64,000 nt of DNA. It comes from a virus. The position numbers were made by a program, and so were the translations under genes. Positions within the stretch are counted from its first letter, which is position 1; every line of letters starts with the position of its first letter. Location: the IMG/VR virus record IMGVR_UViG_3300044801_000208, positions 1 through 64,000 of that record; one strand, given 5' to 3'. The notes below the pieces were generated by a model. It saw nothing but the letters and a program-made list of their open reading frames with translations. It was not told the origin of the DNA and did no database searches. Shown piece by piece: positions 4,095 through 55,634 of this stretch.

Positions 4095-4249
4095 CCCTCT
4101 ATCCTATCACGGCGCGGCTTGGTGCCTTGTCCTGAATTTTCACTTTCCAGCCGTTGTCCTGGCAGAAGCCCCTGACCGTGTCCTCGCTGACGTTGGTGAA
4201 GAGGCCCAGTGGTTCTCGTCACCCTCGAAAATCTCCCCGTCCTCCACGA

Positions 4250-4426
4250 TTATCCACATGCTGGGTCCTTCGGCAGCCCGCAGTCCTTGCACCTGCCCGC
4301 GTCCCAGCGGTGGGAGCATTCTTTACTCCGGCGCTCCAGGAAGACGCTGTGCGGCACAAGCTCGGCGTCGATGTAGTACTTCATCCCGTCCGGGGATTTG
4401 TCGATGTAGAAATCCTTGTGCGCCAT
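4250..4426 (-). CDS. small Cys/His-rich hypothetical protein
   Basis: MAHKDF... after RBS AGGAGG; CSHRW...CKDC. Confidence 0.55.
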   Translation of the reverse strand: MAHKDFYIDKSPDGMKYYIDAELVPHSVFLERRSKECSHRWDAGRCKDCGLPKDPACG

Positions 4427-4451
4427 GCTTCGGCGGCTACCTCCTTGTATT

Positions 4452-4949
4452 TCATACTTTCCCAAAATTTGTAAGCGCAAATTCACCGAAATATAAACGA
4501 GCGGCGGCGTCGTATACTAAAGCAGCTTCACATTCAGTCCCAAACAGACCCAAATGCTTGCGTTTCCCGTTCATCCCGATCTGGGCTACCCATCTGCCCG
4601 AAGCCTTATGAAAACTCACCCCTTTGTATGAACTCGTTCCGCCTGAGCGCACACGCTGATTCCCTTGGTTCCCTTTCTTAACTGTGACTCTAAGGTTGTG
4701 TTTTTGACAGTTCAACCCGTTATGATCTTCGTGATCTACTTCTACAGCCGGATCAGTGACCCCCTTCACGAAGCGGTGCAAATTTATGCACACTGTTTTG
4801 TTGTCTTTTCGTTTTCCGACCCTGACGGTGCGACTTGCGTATACGGTATTTTTATCTATCCTAGCGATCCACCTGTACTGAGACACGGCGACGTAATCTT
4901 CATCGTCGATGAAAGCAACGTAGCCCTTTGTGAGAGGAATCTCTTTCAC
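4452..4949 (-). CDS. HNH-AP2 domain homing endonuclease
   Basis: IPLTKGYVAFIDDED, VDHEDHNGLNCQKHNLR, AP2 motif YKGV...W.AQI...LGLF...EAALVYD.AA; GTG start overlaps upstream TGA. Confidence 0.9.
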   Translation of the reverse strand: MKEIPLTKGYVAFIDDEDYVAVSQYRWIARIDKNTVYASRTVRVGKRKDNKTVCINLHRFVKGVTDPAVEVDHEDHNGLNCQKHNLRVTVKKGNQGNQRVRSGGTSSYKGVSFHKASGRWVAQIGMNGKRKHLGLFGTECEAALVYDAAARLYFGEFALTNFGKV

Positions 4950-50687: not shown

Positions 50688-50988
50688 GACACTCAATACC
50701 GGAACCATCAGTATGAGCAAAGATTTCCAGACGGCATTCCCAGAGGACTTCGAGCAGGAGCCGGACCCGAACGTCATCATGTGCAGATGGGGGTGCGGGC
50801 AGCCAGCGAAGTACGGGAACCTGAGGCCGGGCTTGCAGGGCGGCGACCCGCCGTGCTGCTCGGGCGACCCGAAGACCGGGCGCGTAAGCAAGGGGGAGTG
50901 CCCCGCAATCAAAGGGGCCGCCTTGAGGGCGGCCCGGAGGGCTGGGCGGCTAGGCCGAAGGTGGCAGAGCCGCTTCTGATCTGAAATT

Positions 50989-51063
50989 TGGTAGCCCTGA
51001 GCGGTATCGATCCGCCTTCCGCGCCTTGAGAGGGTGCTGTCCTAGCCAGTAGACGACAGGGCC
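50989..51063 (-). tRNA. tRNA-Glu(CTC)
   Basis: Cloverleaf, anticodon loop CT-CTC-AA, CCA end. Confidence 0.85.
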
Positions 51064-51072
51064 ACTTTCTGC

Positions 51073-51186
51073 TGGTACAGCTCGCGCCCGCCCAGGCGCG
51101 GTTGCTTGCGCCAGCGGAGCGGCGGGCGGGGAACCCACTCCGGCGCTGAAAGTCGCACTCTGGCCTCTGAGTTAACAGCGCGAACT
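51073..51186 (-). ncRNA. tRNA-like RNA: Val-like 5' acceptor/D arm followed by non-tRNA stems
   Basis: GCGCTGTTAACTCAGAGGCCAGAGTG...; 9-bp closing stem; ends ACCA; no T loop. Confidence 0.4.
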
Positions 51187-51262
51187 TGGTAGGGTATAGG
51201 AGAATCGAACTCCTCATCATCTGATTGAAAGTCAGAGGTCCAAACCGATAGACGGATACCCC
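51187..51262 (-). tRNA. tRNA-Glu(TTC)
   Basis: TCTGA-CTTTCAA-TCAGA; TTCGA; CCA. Confidence 0.95.
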
Positions 51263-51295
51263 ATCTCTAAATTTACTCCCGCGTGCTCCTAAATT

Positions 51296-51371
51296 TGGTG
51301 GACCTAGTCGGGATCGAACCGACGACCTCTTCCATGCCATGGAAGCGCGCTCCCAGCTGCGCTATAGGCCC
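51296..51371 (-). tRNA. tRNA-Ala(GGC)
   Basis: CTTCC-ATGGCAT-GGAAG; G3.U70; CCA. Confidence 0.95.
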
Positions 51372-51384
51372 AGCGAACGGCTTT

Positions 51385-51459
51385 CGGCAGGTACAGGATT
51401 CGAACCCGCGTCTCCGGCTGCCCGGAATCCTAAGCCACTAGACGAACCCCTACTCGCCG
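51385..51459 (-). ncRNA. anticodon-less tRNA-like element
   Basis: D arm and T arm (GGTTCGAATCC) intact; anticodon stem TCCGG/CCGGA closed by a 4-nt loop. Confidence 0.55.
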
Positions 51460-51487
51460 TTCTTTGCGTCGTGCACGGACGCAATCT

Positions 51488-51563
51488 TGGTAGCGCACGA
51501 GGGACTCGAACCCTCATTTCACACGCTGAGAACGTGGTTGCCTAGCCGTTAGCAGAGTGCGCC
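51488..51563 (-). tRNA. tRNA-Glu(CTC)
   Basis: CACG-TTCTCAG-CGTG; TTCGA; CCA. Confidence 0.85.
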
Positions 51564-51569
51564 GAAACT

Positions 51570-51645
51570 TGGTGGACCTAAGGGGGCTCGAACCCCTGAC
51601 CTCATCGTTGCGAACGATGCGCTCTCCCAACTGAGCTACAGGCCC
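51570..51645 (-). tRNA. tRNA-Ala(CGC)
   Basis: CATCG-TTCGCAA-CGATG; G3.U70; CCA. Confidence 0.95.
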
Positions 51646-51655
51646 AACTTCAAAC

Positions 51656-51732
51656 TGGAGCGGCTGGCGGGATTTGAACCCGCGATCTCTTCCATGGCAA
51701 GGAAGCATTCTACCAGGCTGAACTACAACCGC
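51656..51732 (-). tRNA. tRNA-Gly(GCC)
   Basis: CTTCC-TTGCCAT-GGAAG; U73-CCA. Confidence 0.95.
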
Positions 51733-51746
51733 GTATTTCCAATCTT

Positions 51747-51820
51747 TGGAGCGAGAGACCGGACTCGAACCGGCAGTCTGAGCACACTGTCGTTGTAATC
51801 CATTCCACACCGCTCATAGT
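51747..51820 (-). pseudogene. tRNA-Gly-like 3' half without a matching 5' half
   Basis: GCCGG-TTCGAGT-CCGGT-CTCTCGC-TCCA; upstream sequence does not complete the acceptor stem. Confidence 0.55.
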
Positions 51821-51827
51821 CAAAATT

Positions 51828-51991
51828 TTTGCTGCGTTTACGTCCCAGTCGGTCGATGGCTTTTACCCCATCGCGTCAGTCGGGGCATTCGCCGAGGCTG
51901 ACGGACATTCCGTGGTCGTCGAATCTCGTAGCCGAAGCTACGGCGTTTTTCTACCCACTTAAGGGAGTCCACGCGGATGCCACGCAGCAAA
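51828..51991 (-). ncRNA. unknown multi-branched structured RNA (about 164 nt)
   Basis: 10-bp closing stem TTTGCTGCGT/ACGCAGCAAA, UUCG-capped hairpin, several further helices; lies between tRNAs. Confidence 0.55.
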
Positions 51992-52001
51992 CCTCTAAAC
52001 T

Positions 52002-52076
52002 TGGAGCGGGTTACCGAAATCGAATCGGTCTCTGTGGCTTGGAGGGCCACGGCACCGCCAGTTATACCTAACCCGC
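52002..52076 (-). tRNA. tRNA-Gly(TCC), atypical (C33, weak D arm)
   Basis: GTGGC-CCTCCAA-GCCAC; TTCGA; U73-CCA. Confidence 0.8.
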
Positions 52077-52562
52077 TAAACGATAAAACTTTCCACACTG
52101 ACTACTTTCTCGCGTTTGTTTATTGGTAGCGATCAGCCCCTTGTTCCTGTCCTCCGCTGTCTTTACTGCGTGACAGTTCGCACAACGTACGTCACATTTG
52201 GCTATTTCGTCCAAAACTCGCTGCCGACCTTTAGTCCAACCTTGGGCCAAATTGAACTTCTTTTCCTTTGGATCGCGATGGTCGAAGTGCAGGGCTGCTG
52301 CGTATTCCTTGTACCCACAATCCTTGCACCCCAGTTCCAGCTTTACAGAGTCAATCCATTTTCTGCGAGCGGCATACCGGTAATCTCTTGCACGACGGTT
52401 GCAGATAGTTTTTGTTTCTTTACGCTCTTCCGGCGTTTTTACCTGCGTTGAATCTTTGCAGACCCGTGTACAGAAAAATATTTTGTGCTTACACAGCTTG
52501 TACCGCGACGGGTATATGTCAAAGTCATTTTTGCAAACCCAACATTGAACCGTTATCATCAC
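52068..52562 (-). CDS. HNH endonuclease inside the tRNA array
   Basis: GCKDCGY...LHFDHRDP..K.F...EIAKC.V.CANCH. Confidence 0.85.
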   Translation of the reverse strand: MMITVQCWVCKNDFDIYPSRYKLCKHKIFFCTRVCKDSTQVKTPEERKETKTICNRRARDYRYAARRKWIDSVKLELGCKDCGYKEYAAALHFDHRDPKEKKFNLAQGWTKGRQRVLDEIAKCDVRCANCHAVKTAEDRNKGLIATNKQTRESSQCGKFYRLAG

Positions 52563-52609
52563 TATTTGCTCCCCCTACTTTGAATACTGTAGAAGGAGCA
52601 AATAGTTAA

Positions 52610-52969
52610 TTTACGCGACCTATAAGCGGGGTTCTGTAAGCACCGAAGTGCCCGACAGCCATTCGTCTAATCCACCTATTACTAGGCGGCTCAAGCCCCT
52701 AACCCGCAGATTGATAACGAACCGAGCAAGCTCTCTCTGCCTATTTAGGGTTGCTTCACGCAAGGTTTGCCATGCAACGACTGTTACCAGCCGCCCGGTG
52801 GTCTCTTAAACCGCCTTTTCACCCTTACCGTCTTGCGACGGCGGTATATTCTCTGTGGCACTGTCTATCACGGTTACCCGTGTCCGGGTGTTACCCGGTG
52901 CGCTGCTCTATGTAGCCCCGACTTTCCTCCCCCGTAAAATCACAGCGGCGACTGTCCGGTCAACGTAAA
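52610..52969 (-). ncRNA. rnpB: RNase P RNA, bacterial type A
   Basis: GAGGAAAGTCGGGGCT, AGTGCCACAGA, GGGTGAAA, GGCAAACC, AGACGAATG, ACAGAACCCCGCTTAT; P4 covaries; P1 closes the ends. Confidence 0.92.
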
Positions 52970-52972
52970 ATT

Positions 52973-53049
52973 TGGAGGTCCGGGGGAGAATCGAACTCCC
53001 GCATTTTCACGTTTGCAGCGTGACGCCTTACCGTCTTGGCTACCGAACC
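52973..53049 (-). tRNA. tRNA-Cys(GCA)
   Basis: TCACG-CTGCAAA-CGTGA; U73-CCA. Confidence 0.95.
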
Positions 53050-53056
53050 AAACTAA

Positions 53057-53161
53057 TTGGATCAAGTGCTCTACTACTGAGCTACACCCGCCATCTGTCG
53101 ATAGCCGAAGCGTGACAGTGGGCGGGAGGGCGGGTACGAGACCGCCGACCTCCTGATCCAA
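53057..53161 (-). ncRNA. circularly permuted tRNA-like RNA (YrlA/Y-RNA-like topology)
   Basis: Order: stem 5' strand, T arm, acceptor 3' strand, hairpin linker, acceptor 5' strand, D arm (TAGCTCAGTAGTAGAGC), stem 3' strand; 10-bp terminal stem replaces the anticodon arm. Confidence 0.7.
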
Positions 53162-53164
53162 ACT

Positions 53165-53238
53165 TGGCGGGGCGTACGGGAGTCGAACCCGTGTGTCTCG
53201 GTAGACAGCCGAGTAAATTGCCGTCATTCTCACGCCCC
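53165..53238 (-). tRNA. tRNA-Asp(GTC)
   Basis: CTCGG-CTGTCTA-CCGAG; G73-CCA. Confidence 0.9.
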
Positions 53239-53312
53239 GGACGCCGAGACGGGAATCGAACCCGTGAATAAACGTTTTGCAGACGTTCGCCTTACCACTT
53301 GGCTACTCAGCT
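53239..53312 (-). tRNA. tRNA-Cys(GCA), 3' end abutting tRNA-Asp (no complete CCA, 1-72 mismatch)
   Basis: AACGT-CTGCAAA-ACGTT; GGTTCGATTCC. Confidence 0.8.
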
Positions 53313-53327
53313 TACACAAAAATTATG

Positions 53328-53398
53328 CCGCGATGATTAAGGGGCTGATCCCCATCCCGGCGCTCCGAAGAGCCTTCCGGTATCTATCGCCGTCGCGG
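53328..53398 (-). ncRNA. unknown three-way-junction RNA
   Basis: CCGCGA/TCGCGG closing stem; CCGG..GCTC-TTCG-GAGC..CCGG; GGGG/CCCC hairpin. Confidence 0.4.
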
Positions 53399-53409
53399 AC
53401 GACACACTC

Positions 53410-53479
53410 TGAGCGCTGTATCCACGTCTTAGGTGGGTGTTCTTCACAGACCGCTAAGTCTGGTACTGGACAGCGCTCA
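53410..53479 (-). ncRNA. unknown three-way-junction RNA
   Basis: 10-bp TGAGCGCTGT/ACAGCGCTCA closing stem; CAGAC/GTCTG and CCAC/GTGG hairpins. Confidence 0.5.
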
Positions 53480-53483
53480 AACT

Positions 53484-53558
53484 TGGTGGACACAGGGAGA
53501 TTCGAACTCCATAGTTCTCATTGCAAGTGAGACGCATTCCCAATTATGCTACTGGCCC
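53484..53558 (-). tRNA. tRNA-Ala(TGC)
   Basis: TCTCA-CTTGCAA-TGAGA; G3.U70; CCA. Confidence 0.9.
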
Positions 53559-53570
53559 ACATTCAAAACT

Positions 53571-53646
53571 TGGTGCGCTGGAAGGGACTCGAACCCCCGA
53601 TGAGTGTCTTGTAAGGGCACCGCTTTAGCCGCTAAGCTACCCGCGC
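53571..53646 (-). tRNA. tRNA-Val(TAC)
   Basis: GTGCC-CTTACAA-GACAC; TTCGA; CCA. Confidence 0.9.
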
Positions 53647-54039
53647 AAATCTCTCTACGTACTCTGCCGCAAGCCTCAATAGGTTCGCTCGGTCGCGAAA
53701 ATGACCAAGCCCTAAATTACACCCGCGACACAAAAACCCACGAGCTATATCCGTCTCGTGATTATGATCTAAGTGGGCCTTCCTGAACCCACCCTCGATT
53801 ATTTCAGTACACACGGCGCAATGCCCTTGCTGTCCCGTCCACAAAGTTTGAAGCTCTTCTTCGCTCAAACCTAATCGAGTTCTCTTCCTCTGACTTCGAT
53901 TTGTGCGTTCACATCCCGCACAGAACGGGCGGCGTCCGCTCTTCCGGCTGACATCTGGATAAAATTCTCCCAGCTTCAACCATGCTTCACATCTTGGACA
54001 CCACTTCTCGTGTTCATTAAACTTTTTGTTTCGTCCCAT
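53632..54039 (-). CDS. endonuclease VII-family homing endonuclease
   Basis: Q.G.CAVC...HLDHNH.T...RGFLC..CN.GLG.F.D. Confidence 0.85.
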   Translation of the reverse strand: MGRNKKFNEHEKWCPRCEAWLKLGEFYPDVSRKSGRRPFCAGCERTNRSQRKRTRLGLSEEELQTLWTGQQGHCAVCTEIIEGGFRKAHLDHNHETDIARGFLCRGCNLGLGHFRDRANLLRLAAEYVERFARVA

Positions 54040-54060
54040 TCTGGACAATACTCGGAAAAT

Positions 54061-54092
54061 AAAAAAGGACGCTCACTTTTCAGTGGCGTCCT
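54061..54092 (-). terminator. intrinsic terminator of a putative attenuator
   Basis: AGGACGC-CAC-TGAAAA-GTG-A-GCGTCC-TTTTTT. Confidence 0.85.
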
Positions 54093-54140
54093 CGGAATCT
54101 CTGTTGGGTGGCTATTTAGCCGACTCGACCCTCCGAGGAC
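54088..54140 (-). promoter_or_regulatory. antiterminator helix overlapping the terminator 5' arm
   Basis: GTCCTCGGA (54140-54132) is perfectly complementary to TCCGAGGAC (54096-54088). Confidence 0.7.
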
Positions 54141-54235
54141 ATGGTATCTCCCTCCGCCGCTTCGGCGGCGACCGTACCTGCACACACGACGACTGCGGCG
54201 GATACGACGGTCGAGTTGGAGTTGAAGGAGTTCAT
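54116..54235 (-). CDS. putative attenuator leader peptide (39 aa)
   Basis: MNSFNSNSTVVSAAVVVCAGTVAAEAAEGDTMSSEGRVG*, downstream of TTGACA (54283-54278), overlapping the antiterminator arm. Confidence 0.65.
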   Translation of the reverse strand: MNSFNSNSTVVSAAVVVCAGTVAAEAAEGDTMSSEGRVG

Positions 54236-54296
54236 GTCTCTATCCTGATACTGCATATTCGCAAAATCTGCGGAAACTGTCAAGCGAAAAATCGCG

Positions 54297-54632
54297 ATGG
54301 CGCGGGAGGGGCCGGTTGCCAGTCCGACATCAGGCCCTGGTCGGGGATTCCCGGCCGTTGCTTTCGGCGGGTGCTCTTTGGGCTGCCGCCCTAGCGTTTG
54401 AGCTACACCTTCCCGCGCCAAACTTGCCGGGTGCCCGCTGTGGCTCCCCGCGCTGCACCCTGACTCCGTGTTGCCAAAGTGTTTCCCCCAGCATCTCTTG
54501 GCCCGGTGAATACAGGGTCGGAGTCGGGGGCTGCGGCGCGGCTCAGTGGGCTATTCACGCCCTTTGTCCCTCTGGGCTGTTTATCCTCTGGGGACGAGCG
54601 GCGGTTTCCCGCAGGCTAAAATCAATCTCTCA
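54297..54632 (-). ncRNA. candidate large structured RNA (about 330 nt)
   Basis: At least 8 nested helices and a 7-bp loop-loop complement; no credible ORF; CAGTACTAT motif just upstream. Confidence 0.55.
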
Positions 54633-54947
54633 TGTATAGTACTGCAAAGTCAAGGTTTTTCTTCGCGAAGCGGACTTTTTGGGAACCTACCCCTTCGGTG
54701 GGCCCCCTACCACGGCTTGCGCCGGGGTACTTTTTGCGGGCCTTGGTACTTGCTGACGCTTTCCCTGCCCAGACCGTCTAAAGGTTTTGGGGCGGTGGAT
54801 GCCGCCCCGTTGAGAGTGGTTTCCTAGGCCGTAGAAGGCGCGGAACGACAGCGTGGCCACGCTGAGGCCGCCGGAGCGCCAAAACTTGCTGGACGGATTG
54901 TGTACCGTCGCCAGGGAACCCGACCCCTGTCCGTTGCCTTCGCTCCC

Positions 54948-55634
54948 TCACAGTATACGCTGGGCGCGGCAGGATCGTCCGGAACCCTCCTGTATCTGCT
55001 GAATCAGTATCTTGCGACCCCTCAGGAGCCTGGACTTGAGCGCCGCCATGGGGATCAGGACGGGGGTGCCGTCCTTCTTGCGGTGGACGGGGCCGAGGAC
55101 GCGGCGGATGTCCTTGTTCCGCATGCCCTCCCAGAAGCGGAGGCGGAGTATCTCGCGGTACGCCGTCGGCACGCGGGTGATCGCACGCCTCAGAACCTCC
55201 CGGTCGGCCACGCCCTCCAGGCACAGGTCGCGGACGGAGAGCCTCACGGCTACCTTCCTGCCGTACGTCTCGCCGCTGAGCTCCTGGTCCAGGGAGACCT
55301 CGTTGCGGCACGCCTGCGTGTTCTCGTGCCTCAGGTGTTGCAGCCCCTCGTTGATTGCGATGCGGGTGACCCAGGTGGAGAACTTGGACTGCTCGTCGAA
55401 CGTCCCGAGCTTCTGCCAGACCTTCGTGAGCGCGACGTTCGCCAGCCACTCGGCCTGGTCCTCGTCGTGCACGATGCGGCTGATGACGATCCGCAGGCGG
55501 TTGTGGTGGTGGGCGTAGAGCGCGGTGAACGCCGCCTCTTCGCCGCCCTTGGCGCGGCGGACCAGCTCAAGCTCCTCCGGCGAGTCGTAGACCTTGCGCT
55601 TCAGCGCGGGTGCTGCGGCTGCTGATGCTCCCAT
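54948..55634 (-). CDS. ECF-type RNA polymerase sigma factor
   Basis: LVRRAKGG...AF..LY, F...SKFSTWVTRIAIN (region 2); LP/VP..YREIL.LR...G....I...LG...KSRL.RGR (region 4). Confidence 0.85.
   Translation of the reverse strand: MGASAAAAPALKRKVYDSPEELELVRRAKGGEEAAFTALYAHHHNRLRIVISRIVHDEDQAEWLANVALTKVWQKLGTFDEQSKFSTWVTRIAINEGLQHLRHENTQACRNEVSLDQELSGETYGRKVAVRLSVRDLCLEGVADREVLRRAITRVPTAYREILRLRFWEGMRNKDIRRVLGPVHRKKDGTPVLIPMAALKSRLLRGRKILIQQIQEGSGRSCRAQRIL

Follow-up and report, generated by a model that had tools for sequence, protein, structure and literature searches.

A putative leader-peptide attenuator upstream of a tRNA and RNase P RNA array in a giant-phage contig

Anatomy of the locus

Transfer RNA (tRNA) genes are generally held to be controlled at their promoters, through growth rate, the stringent response or repressors. 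The locus described here raises the question whether a phage tRNA array may also be gated by a translated leader. It lies on the minus strand of a 97.8-kb viral contig (IMG/VR record IMGVR_UViG_3300044801_000208), whose first 64 kb, with a G+C content of 60.6%, are the window analyzed. CheckV estimates the contig to be ~31% complete, and the source phage genome would therefore be roughly 300 kb. The sole tRNA array on the contig is preceded by a 39-codon open reading frame (ORF) and an intrinsic terminator. We consider it likely, with a probability of about 0.8, that this region is a transcription attenuator of the trp/ilv leader-peptide type, which would gate the Val/Ala/Cys/Asp/Gly/Glu tRNA array by gauging how well the codons of that array are decoded.

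In minus-strand order the locus consists of a sigma factor gene, ~700 nt of non-coding sequence, the hexamers TTGACA and GAATAT, the ORF, the terminator, an endonuclease VII (EndoVII) gene and the tRNA array. The original prediction, made from the letters of the window, had set out the order of TTGACA, ORF, terminator and tRNA/RNase P array, and every element is found at its predicted position. The array and the elements of the putative switch are as follows, the last two with their predicted folding energies.

50989-53646, minus strand: array unit of 12 tRNA genes, RNase P RNA and an HNH gene (ARAGORN, Rfam, PHROGs)
54278-54283, minus strand: -35-like hexamer TTGACA, invariant in an alignment of 7 homologous leaders
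54255-54260, minus strand: -10-like hexamer GAATAT, following the -35 after a 17-nt spacer; position conserved in relatives (TAATAT in G008)
54236-54250, minus strand: short 5' untranslated region (5' UTR) with a putative AGGA-type Shine-Dalgarno-like motif ~7 nt before the ATG, a conserved block in the alignment
54116-54235, minus strand: leader ORF, ATG at 54235, 39 sense codons, TAA at 54118-54116, with homologous ORFs in relatives
54146-54208, minus strand: sensor block, codons 10-30
54154-54171, minus strand: conserved in-ORF hairpin (RNAalifold), 6-7 bp stem with invariant columns and a variable 4-nt loop holding a variable codon
54088-54140, minus strand: antiterminator hairpin of 53 nt, -22.6 kcal/mol, z = -3.5, stop codon in the apical loop
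54056-54091, minus strand: intrinsic terminator with a bulged 10-bp stem and GAAA loop (54091-54067) and a U tract (54066-54056), -15.5 to -18.4 kcal/mol

Four of the features by which attenuators are recognized are found here. A short ORF with a start codon and a putative ribosome-binding site stands at the predicted 5' end of the transcript, which would begin ~15 nt ahead of the ORF. The regulatory codons match the product of the controlled genes, and an intrinsic terminator separates the leader ORF from the structural genes. The antiterminator shares a strand with the terminator and, in modeled folds, appears to be placed for control by a ribosome. The in-ORF hairpin may possibly act as a pause hairpin for RNA polymerase; the RNAalifold alignment included promoter DNA, and its consensus is partly meaningless.

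Codon content of the leader ORF

ARAGORN identifies the 12 tRNAs of the array as Val(TAC), Ala(TGC, GGC and CGC), two Cys(GCA), Asp(GTC), Gly(TCC and GCC), Glu(TTC) and two Glu(CTC), which together carry 10 distinct anticodons. Codons 10-30 of the leader (54208-54146) read as originally described: 19 of the 21 specify Val, Ala, Cys, Gly, Glu or Asp, and each of the 10 anticodons has a cognate codon. Cover was scored by Watson-Crick pairing for U34 and C34 with wobble allowed for G34, and three of the ten anticodons (GCA, GCC and GTC) are matched through G:U wobble only.

To judge how rare this pattern is, 123,361 stop-free segments of 21 codons were scanned in all six frames of the 97.8-kb contig. 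At least 19 array-amino-acid codons occur in 14 segments at 3 loci, all 10 anticodons are covered in 4 segments at 2 loci, and the leader is the only locus that combines the two. The per-segment null for full anticodon cover within 38 codons is 0.0018. The A/T-ending codons of the leader are scarce, as had been claimed, making up 8-22% of their synonymous families in the long ORFs of the phage (GTA 9%, GCA 8%, GGA 11%, GGT 10%, GAT 14%). When the peptide is held fixed and synonymous codons are resampled from phage usage, the leader alone reaches 10/10 cover with P = 0.034. The codon pattern is real and unusual, yet on a single sequence it is still post hoc. It is the comparison of leaders class by class, not the leader of the window alone, that carries the argument.

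Conservation in relatives and covariation of the alternative stems

Relatives were retrieved with aligned sigma-factor homologues as the query; when viral contigs were scanned with a single protein, an over-long sigma ORF, nothing had matched. The loci obtained with the alignment come from viral and metagenome contigs with sigma factors 46-60% identical to that of the window, and the closest sigma homologues (P0002-P0005, 80-87% identical) lie outside this set. At the sigma-retrieved loci the order of sigma gene, intergenic region, tRNA-Val(TAC) and tRNA-Ala(TGC) is kept, and each has, directly upstream of tRNA-Val, a short ORF homologous to the leader ORF and, after it, a hairpin with a U tract. 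A degenerate motif of the ORF core led to four further distinct relatives on contigs of 102-463 kb. The leader class thus totals ten distinct leaders, the window and nine relatives; G005 is nearly identical to G001 and was excluded from the count. No isolated-phage relative was found in the phage record collection, by DNA or by sigma protein. The leader motif gave at least 120 matches in bacterial and archaeal genomes, and the leader build occurs in none of the matches listed.

The -35, the -10, the block preceding the ATG, the ATG, the ORF core, the TAA and the terminator are all aligned across the leaders. The homologous ORFs range from 35 to 48 codons and the frame is always kept. In particular, six different spacings, between 83 and 122 nt, separate the ATG from the antiterminator arm, and all are 2 mod 3. 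The gap between terminator and first tRNA is 11-26 nt in the relatives and 421 nt in the window, owing to insertion of the EndoVII gene.

The original prediction described a 9-bp antiterminator that overlaps the terminator. Its outer 9-nt arms (54140-54132 and 54096-54088) are perfectly complementary, and the 3' arm shares 4 nt with the terminator stem (54091-54067), so that the pairing and the overlap stand. However, the 9 bp are merely the outer stem of the 53-nt hairpin, whose inner stems flank the stop codon (54118-54116) in the apical loop. All ten leaders share this build, with antiterminators of -21 to -28 kcal/mol (z of -3.5 to -6.2 against shuffled sequences), terminators of -14 to -21 kcal/mol, and the stop codon always in the antiterminator loop at a fixed offset from the arm.

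The terminator hairpin and U tract are kept in all relatives with compensatory changes. Where the terminator stem begins with an extra G, a matching change is found in the ORF arm, and the encoded residues shift from Ser-Ser-Glu to Ser-Leu-Gly. As these C-terminal residues change in step with the RNA arms, the constraint at this position is on the RNA. The inner antiterminator stems have wholly different sequences between relatives and retain their complementarity. MAFFT alignments of the switch region were not consistent with structure, and for this reason per-sequence folds and an alignment-free strand test were used instead, in which native pairs of 5' and 3' strands from the 10 leaders were compared with chimeric pairs over 20,000 permutations. 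The mean is -26.1 kcal/mol for native and -19.9 kcal/mol for chimeric pairs; restricted to the inner parts, the means are -10.4 and -6.7 kcal/mol, respectively. The native mean was reached in 0 of the 20,000 permutations in either case. The ORF and the alternative stems, on whose conservation the original prediction depended, are both conserved with compensatory changes in nine distinct relatives.

An element that functions solely as RNA, such as a riboswitch, a T-box-like tRNA sensor or a protein-binding leader, would also account for covarying alternative stems and for the nucleotide-level conservation and hairpins seen throughout the ORF body, with the open frame being incidental to structure. 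However, the frame survives insertions and deletions in every relative, the stop codon holds a fixed place in the hairpin loop, and the N-terminal and sensor sequences vary while the class of amino acids is retained. No T-box or other cis-regulatory Rfam family is matched over 50800-55000 at E values up to 1. In addition, structure alone leaves unexplained why leaders of unrelated sequence each match their own array, as described below. We regard an RNA-only switch as very improbable.

Leaders of other tRNA arrays in related giant phages

If the leader reads the codons of its array, leaders of arrays with other tRNAs would be expected to carry other codons. We compared the arrays of six contigs (G001, G002, G006, G007, G008 and G009), using a tRNA scan of the whole records and ARAGORN on fetched regions. 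The tRNA genes of these phages are sorted by amino acid into arrays: Val/Ala/Cys/Asp/Gly/Glu; Pro/Met/Phe; Tyr/Leu; Ile/Thr/Gln; Ser, with Leu(TAA) as the last gene; Trp/His/Arg/Asn/Gln/Lys; and Lys with CUA-anticodon tRNAs. A short ORF and a terminator lie upstream of every array class but the Lys/CUA class. The Lys/suppressor arrays of the relatives stand behind protein genes and have no leader.

The codons of these leaders follow the arrays. Pro/Met/Phe leaders contain CCA, CCG, CCT/CCC, ATG and TTT/TTC, Tyr/Leu leaders contain CTA, CTG, TTG, CTT and TAT, and Ile/Thr/Gln leaders contain ACA, ACG, ACC/ACT, CAA/CAG and ATT. The Ser leader has nine Ser codons from both codon boxes and one TTA, and the Trp/His/Arg/Asn/Gln/Lys leaders contain Trp and His. 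Each leader was scored for its enrichment in each class after its start codon and final ten codons, which form the antiterminator strand, had been trimmed off. All 24 leaders score highest for the class of their own array, with -log10 p values of 1.2-7.7 there and never above 1.9 in another class. Full cover of the anticodons of a class is reached by a random open stretch of equal length with a frequency of 0.002-0.008, depending on the class, and from these per-stretch nulls the joint chance of the class matches is ~1e-10. With peptides fixed and synonymous codons redrawn from phage usage, 194 anticodons are covered compared with 162.8 expected, and none of 2000 draws reaches 194. Two expectations attached to the original prediction, that leader codons co-vary with array content in relatives and that they exceed what genome codon usage would give, are borne out by these figures.

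The RNA build is also found in the other classes. In each, a long hairpin (-30 to -37 kcal/mol) built from the final ORF codons carries the stop codon in its loop and ends, on the 3' side, in the first half of a short terminator. In the Pro/Met/Phe class the stop-codon hairpin covaries and the terminator is less canonical.

These comparisons bear on two further explanations of the locus. It could be a small conserved gene that ends in a terminator of its own and encodes, for example, a hydrophobic membrane peptide, the codon match being due to chance. This class does have a conserved hydrophobic peptide core. However, the leaders of the other classes encode unrelated peptides within an identical RNA build, the shift from Ser-Ser-Glu to Ser-Leu-Gly falls exactly where the RNA arms change in step, the leader peptide has no Pfam or PHROG match, and a match by chance would have the joint probability given above. 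We consider a peptide gene the least probable of the explanations discussed here.

The second explanation is an attenuator that reads the general speed of translation or the coupling of transcription and translation, as under global stress, antibiotics or host shut-off, with the codon composition a by-product or a coarse bias. As the predicted default without a ribosome is read-through, any slowdown of translation would open such a leader; the anticodon match is imperfect, and G+C-rich stems within the ORFs of the window's class favor Ala, Gly and Val codons. However, a generic sensor needs no class-specific codons, and six classes are each enriched in their own, differing amino acids, including the rare Trp, Cys, Tyr and Met. 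The rare TTA codon is present where the Ser array ends in Leu(TAA), and synonymous codons sample isoacceptors beyond the expectation from codon usage. A general sensor therefore appears unlikely, and we favor an attenuator that reads the codons of its array.

On a wider scale, giant phages could run a modular, closed-loop tRNA supply, with up to six amino-acid-sorted arrays per genome and each leader an OR gate over isoacceptors, such that each set of tRNAs is made only when its codons decode slowly and is shut off once decoding is restored. We put this forward tentatively, at somewhat less than an even chance.

Several further features of these arrays were noted. Upstream of the Ser array of G008 (L135:1380-1480) there is a terminator and a remnant with Ser codons, no ATG and two in-frame stops, and this leader looks decayed. 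A ~70-nt element is repeated in the 5' UTRs of the Ser (L135) and Trp/His/Arg (L136) arrays of the same contig. In G001, a tRNA-like gene (L088:2388-2550) whose halves are ~90 nt apart, and which has the look of an intron-containing gene, follows a small zinc-ribbon ORF that heads the Gln/Lys array. The leaderless Lys/Gln arrays of G001, G006, G009 and G007 contain two or three CUA-anticodon tRNA genes of the amber-suppressor type, labeled Pyl by ARAGORN, which could point to TAG as a sense codon in these phages.

L088:3203-3489; L128 about 4248-4570; L134:2586-2740; L139:2791-2960, strand not stated: CUA-anticodon tRNA genes (ARAGORN)

Proposed mechanism and folding with a ribosome on the leader

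In the mechanism that we propose, the antiterminator would be folded from the final ~10 ORF codons together with the downstream sequence, and its 3' strand holds the first half of the terminator stem. When decoding is fast, the ribosome would unwind the antiterminator and occupy the stop codon, the terminator would form, and transcription would end before the tRNA genes. Were the ribosome to lag at any sensor codon (about 10-28), the antiterminator would form first and the polymerase would enter the EndoVII gene, the tRNAs and the RNase P RNA. The tRNAs made from the array decode the sensor codons, so that tRNA supply would be under negative feedback, and the circuit would open when any single cognate aminoacyl-tRNA of the array is limiting. 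A multiplexed sensor of tRNA availability, as originally suggested, thus appears to be supported by the comparative match of leaders with arrays and by the conserved switch. Decoding might be slowed by amino-acid starvation, by loss of host tRNAs after shut-off, by a mismatch in codon usage or by anticodon nucleases. The choice between anticodon nucleases and starvation as the trigger is a matter of speculation.

Folding of the nascent transcript is consistent with this mechanism. As long as the 3' half of the terminator has yet to be transcribed, the minimum-energy fold is predicted to be the antiterminator. It is predicted to form without a ribosome or with the ribosomal A site at codons 2-28, to form partially at codon 29, and not to form at codons 30-39. 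This agrees with the attenuator geometry of the original prediction, in that the antiterminator shares a strand with the terminator and a ribosome modeled at codons 30-39 prevents it. The complete leader has two conformers 2.8 kcal/mol apart (-70.1 and -72.9 kcal/mol).

Several observations weigh against the attenuator, or against its simplest form, and some of them concern the switch itself. Equilibrium folds of the complete leader with ribosome masks gave no discrimination between states, and the terminator form is favored at all modeled A-site codons except 4-8. As the terminator form wins at equilibrium nearly everywhere, the decision of the switch must be kinetic, as it is in classical attenuators. 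A linear ribosome footprint at the stop codon masks just 2 nt of the outer arm, and blocking by a ribosome at this position would depend on sterics and on unwinding of the inner stems. The folds of the leader reveal no clear anti-antiterminator (segment 1:2), and the default without translation would therefore be read-through, unlike in trp. In the folds the start-codon region may pair with the arm; the columns of this pairing are invariant, so that there is no covariation to judge it by.

Other observations concern the codons. The claim that the leader matches every anticodon stands for the window (10/10) and fails as a strict rule: the leaders of relatives cover 11-13 of 13 anticodons, missing 0-2, and the window leader holds five GTC codons and one GTG codon although its array is without genes for Val(GAC), Val(CAC) and Gly(CCC). 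The GTG codon could still be decoded by the Val(TAC) tRNA through wobble. These three genes are present in all complete relatives (L002, L003, L005, L008 and L013 were compared), and those of the source phage may have been lost or may be located on the missing two thirds of the genome. The N-terminal Asn, Ser and Thr codons of the leader have no partner tRNA in the array. Because G+C-rich stems within the ORF favor Ala, Gly and Val codons, part of the composition of this class could be structural. Finally, the 24 leaders that score highest for their own class are not 24 independent events, since leaders of the same class are homologous; the independent units are the six classes, with the changes inside them.

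The signals for expression of the leader are also modest. GAATAT matches the E. coli -10 consensus at 3 of 6 positions, a weakness that the original prediction had acknowledged. A consensus scan for promoters and terminators calls neither the promoter nor the terminator of the leader; it misses the latter because of the bulge in its stem. The Shine-Dalgarno-like motif is modest as well, and a check of its usage in the long ORFs of the phage gave only 43 versus 33 of 132.

Comparison with known systems

In enterobacteria, the ilvGMEDA leader contains Ile, Leu and Val codons and the thr leader contains Thr and Ile codons, and similar attenuators precede trp, his, leu and pheA. The phage leaders resemble those of ilvGMEDA and thr in having a short ORF rich in codons for the product, a terminator with a mutually exclusive antiterminator, a decision that would be set by the position of the ribosome, and several amino acids per leader. 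However, the phage leaders precede tRNA and RNase P RNA genes and not biosynthetic enzymes, their synonymous codons appear to be chosen to sample isoacceptors, and the apical loop of their antiterminator holds the stop codon. They also appear to have three segments and not four, with read-through as the predicted default, and are encoded by phages in up to six parallel, class-specific units per genome.

A leader peptide also controls a component of the decoding apparatus in E. coli, where the pheST attenuator with its pheM leader governs the phenylalanyl-tRNA synthetase operon. There, as proposed for the phage leaders, attenuation acts through charged tRNA. However, the pheST system is cellular, its target is a synthetase, and it reads a single amino acid. 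Leaders of the pheL type have been discussed (PMC3082878).

T-boxes (RF00230) likewise precede translation-related genes and, as proposed here, use the status of tRNA to choose between termination and antitermination. Their RNA contacts uncharged tRNA directly by means of a specifier loop and the T-box motif, and no translation is involved, whereas the sensor of the phage leaders is a conserved in-frame ORF. No Rfam cis-regulatory match indicative of a Stem I specifier loop or a T-box sequence was obtained in the region searched above (50800-55000, E up to 1), and a T-box identity was rejected on this basis.

Of the published systems that we found, the nearest in function is the trn operon of Anabaena sp. 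PCC 7120, a long tRNA array that is accessory, horizontally spread, silent by default and induced when translation is impaired, under the control of a protein repressor, TrcR, that acts at direct repeats in the promoter (PMC8421152; PMC10272220). The 2021 paper on this array does not mention a leader peptide or attenuation. The phage arrays are proposed to be similar in being accessory arrays that are off by default and on under translational stress. However, the tRNAs of the Anabaena array are not sorted by amino acid, and the array is controlled by a repressor and not by a leader. In open-access papers and bioRxiv, our searches brought up no report of tRNA genes under the control of a leader peptide.

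If the attenuator operates as proposed, decoding speed would be fed back onto the transcription of tRNA genes through a translated gauge, a regulatory logic that would be new for tRNA supply. The sorting of tRNAs into amino-acid blocks by giant phages would then have an explanation. The attenuator would also offer a testable handle on the purpose of phage tRNAs, whether compensation for codon usage, replacement after host shut-off or escape from anticodon nucleases, as the sequence of the leader would state which shortage the phage watches for. The leaders would sense individual aminoacyl-tRNA pools in a compact, modular form, and they could be put to use as reporters.

Neighboring genes and non-coding sequence

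The remaining features of the locus are protein and RNA genes within the array or on either side of the leader.

52967-52608, minus strand: RNase P RNA, type A, inside the array (Rfam, 268.9 bits)
52562-52068, minus strand: HNH gene inside the array, adjoining the RNase P RNA (PHROGs)
53632-54048, minus strand: EndoVII gene between the terminator and tRNA-Val (Pfam PF02945, E 9.5e-19, and PHROG endonuclease VII)
54948-55634, minus strand: gene for an extracytoplasmic function (ECF)-type sigma factor of 228 aa (P0001), upstream of the leader (Pfam Sigma70_r2/r4)

The Pfam match agrees with the inserted EndoVII gene of the original prediction. Its start is probably the ATG at 54039, and its 3' end overlaps tRNA-Val by 15 nt. 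Genes of the homing-endonuclease type recur at set places in the arrays, and in the window these are EndoVII after the terminator (53632-54048) and HNH by the RNase P RNA (52068-52562). The slot that follows the terminator holds an unrelated 75-codon ORF in G006 (L130:1290-1520).

Between the sigma gene and the leader there is a G+C-rich, non-coding stretch of ~330 nt (54297-54632, minus strand), which is conserved in the closer relatives L007 and L008 with similar pseudo-translations and has no Rfam match. A promoter-like motif, consisting of the core GACTTTGCAGTA followed by a TATAC-type box, heads the Tyr/Leu and Ile/Thr/Gln leaders of G001 (L087, L088), and a variant precedes the Pro/Met/Phe leader of the same contig. 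The GACTTTGCAGTA motif also occurs in the window (54625-54652, minus strand), upstream of the ~330-nt stretch that precedes the TTGACA promoter of the leader itself.

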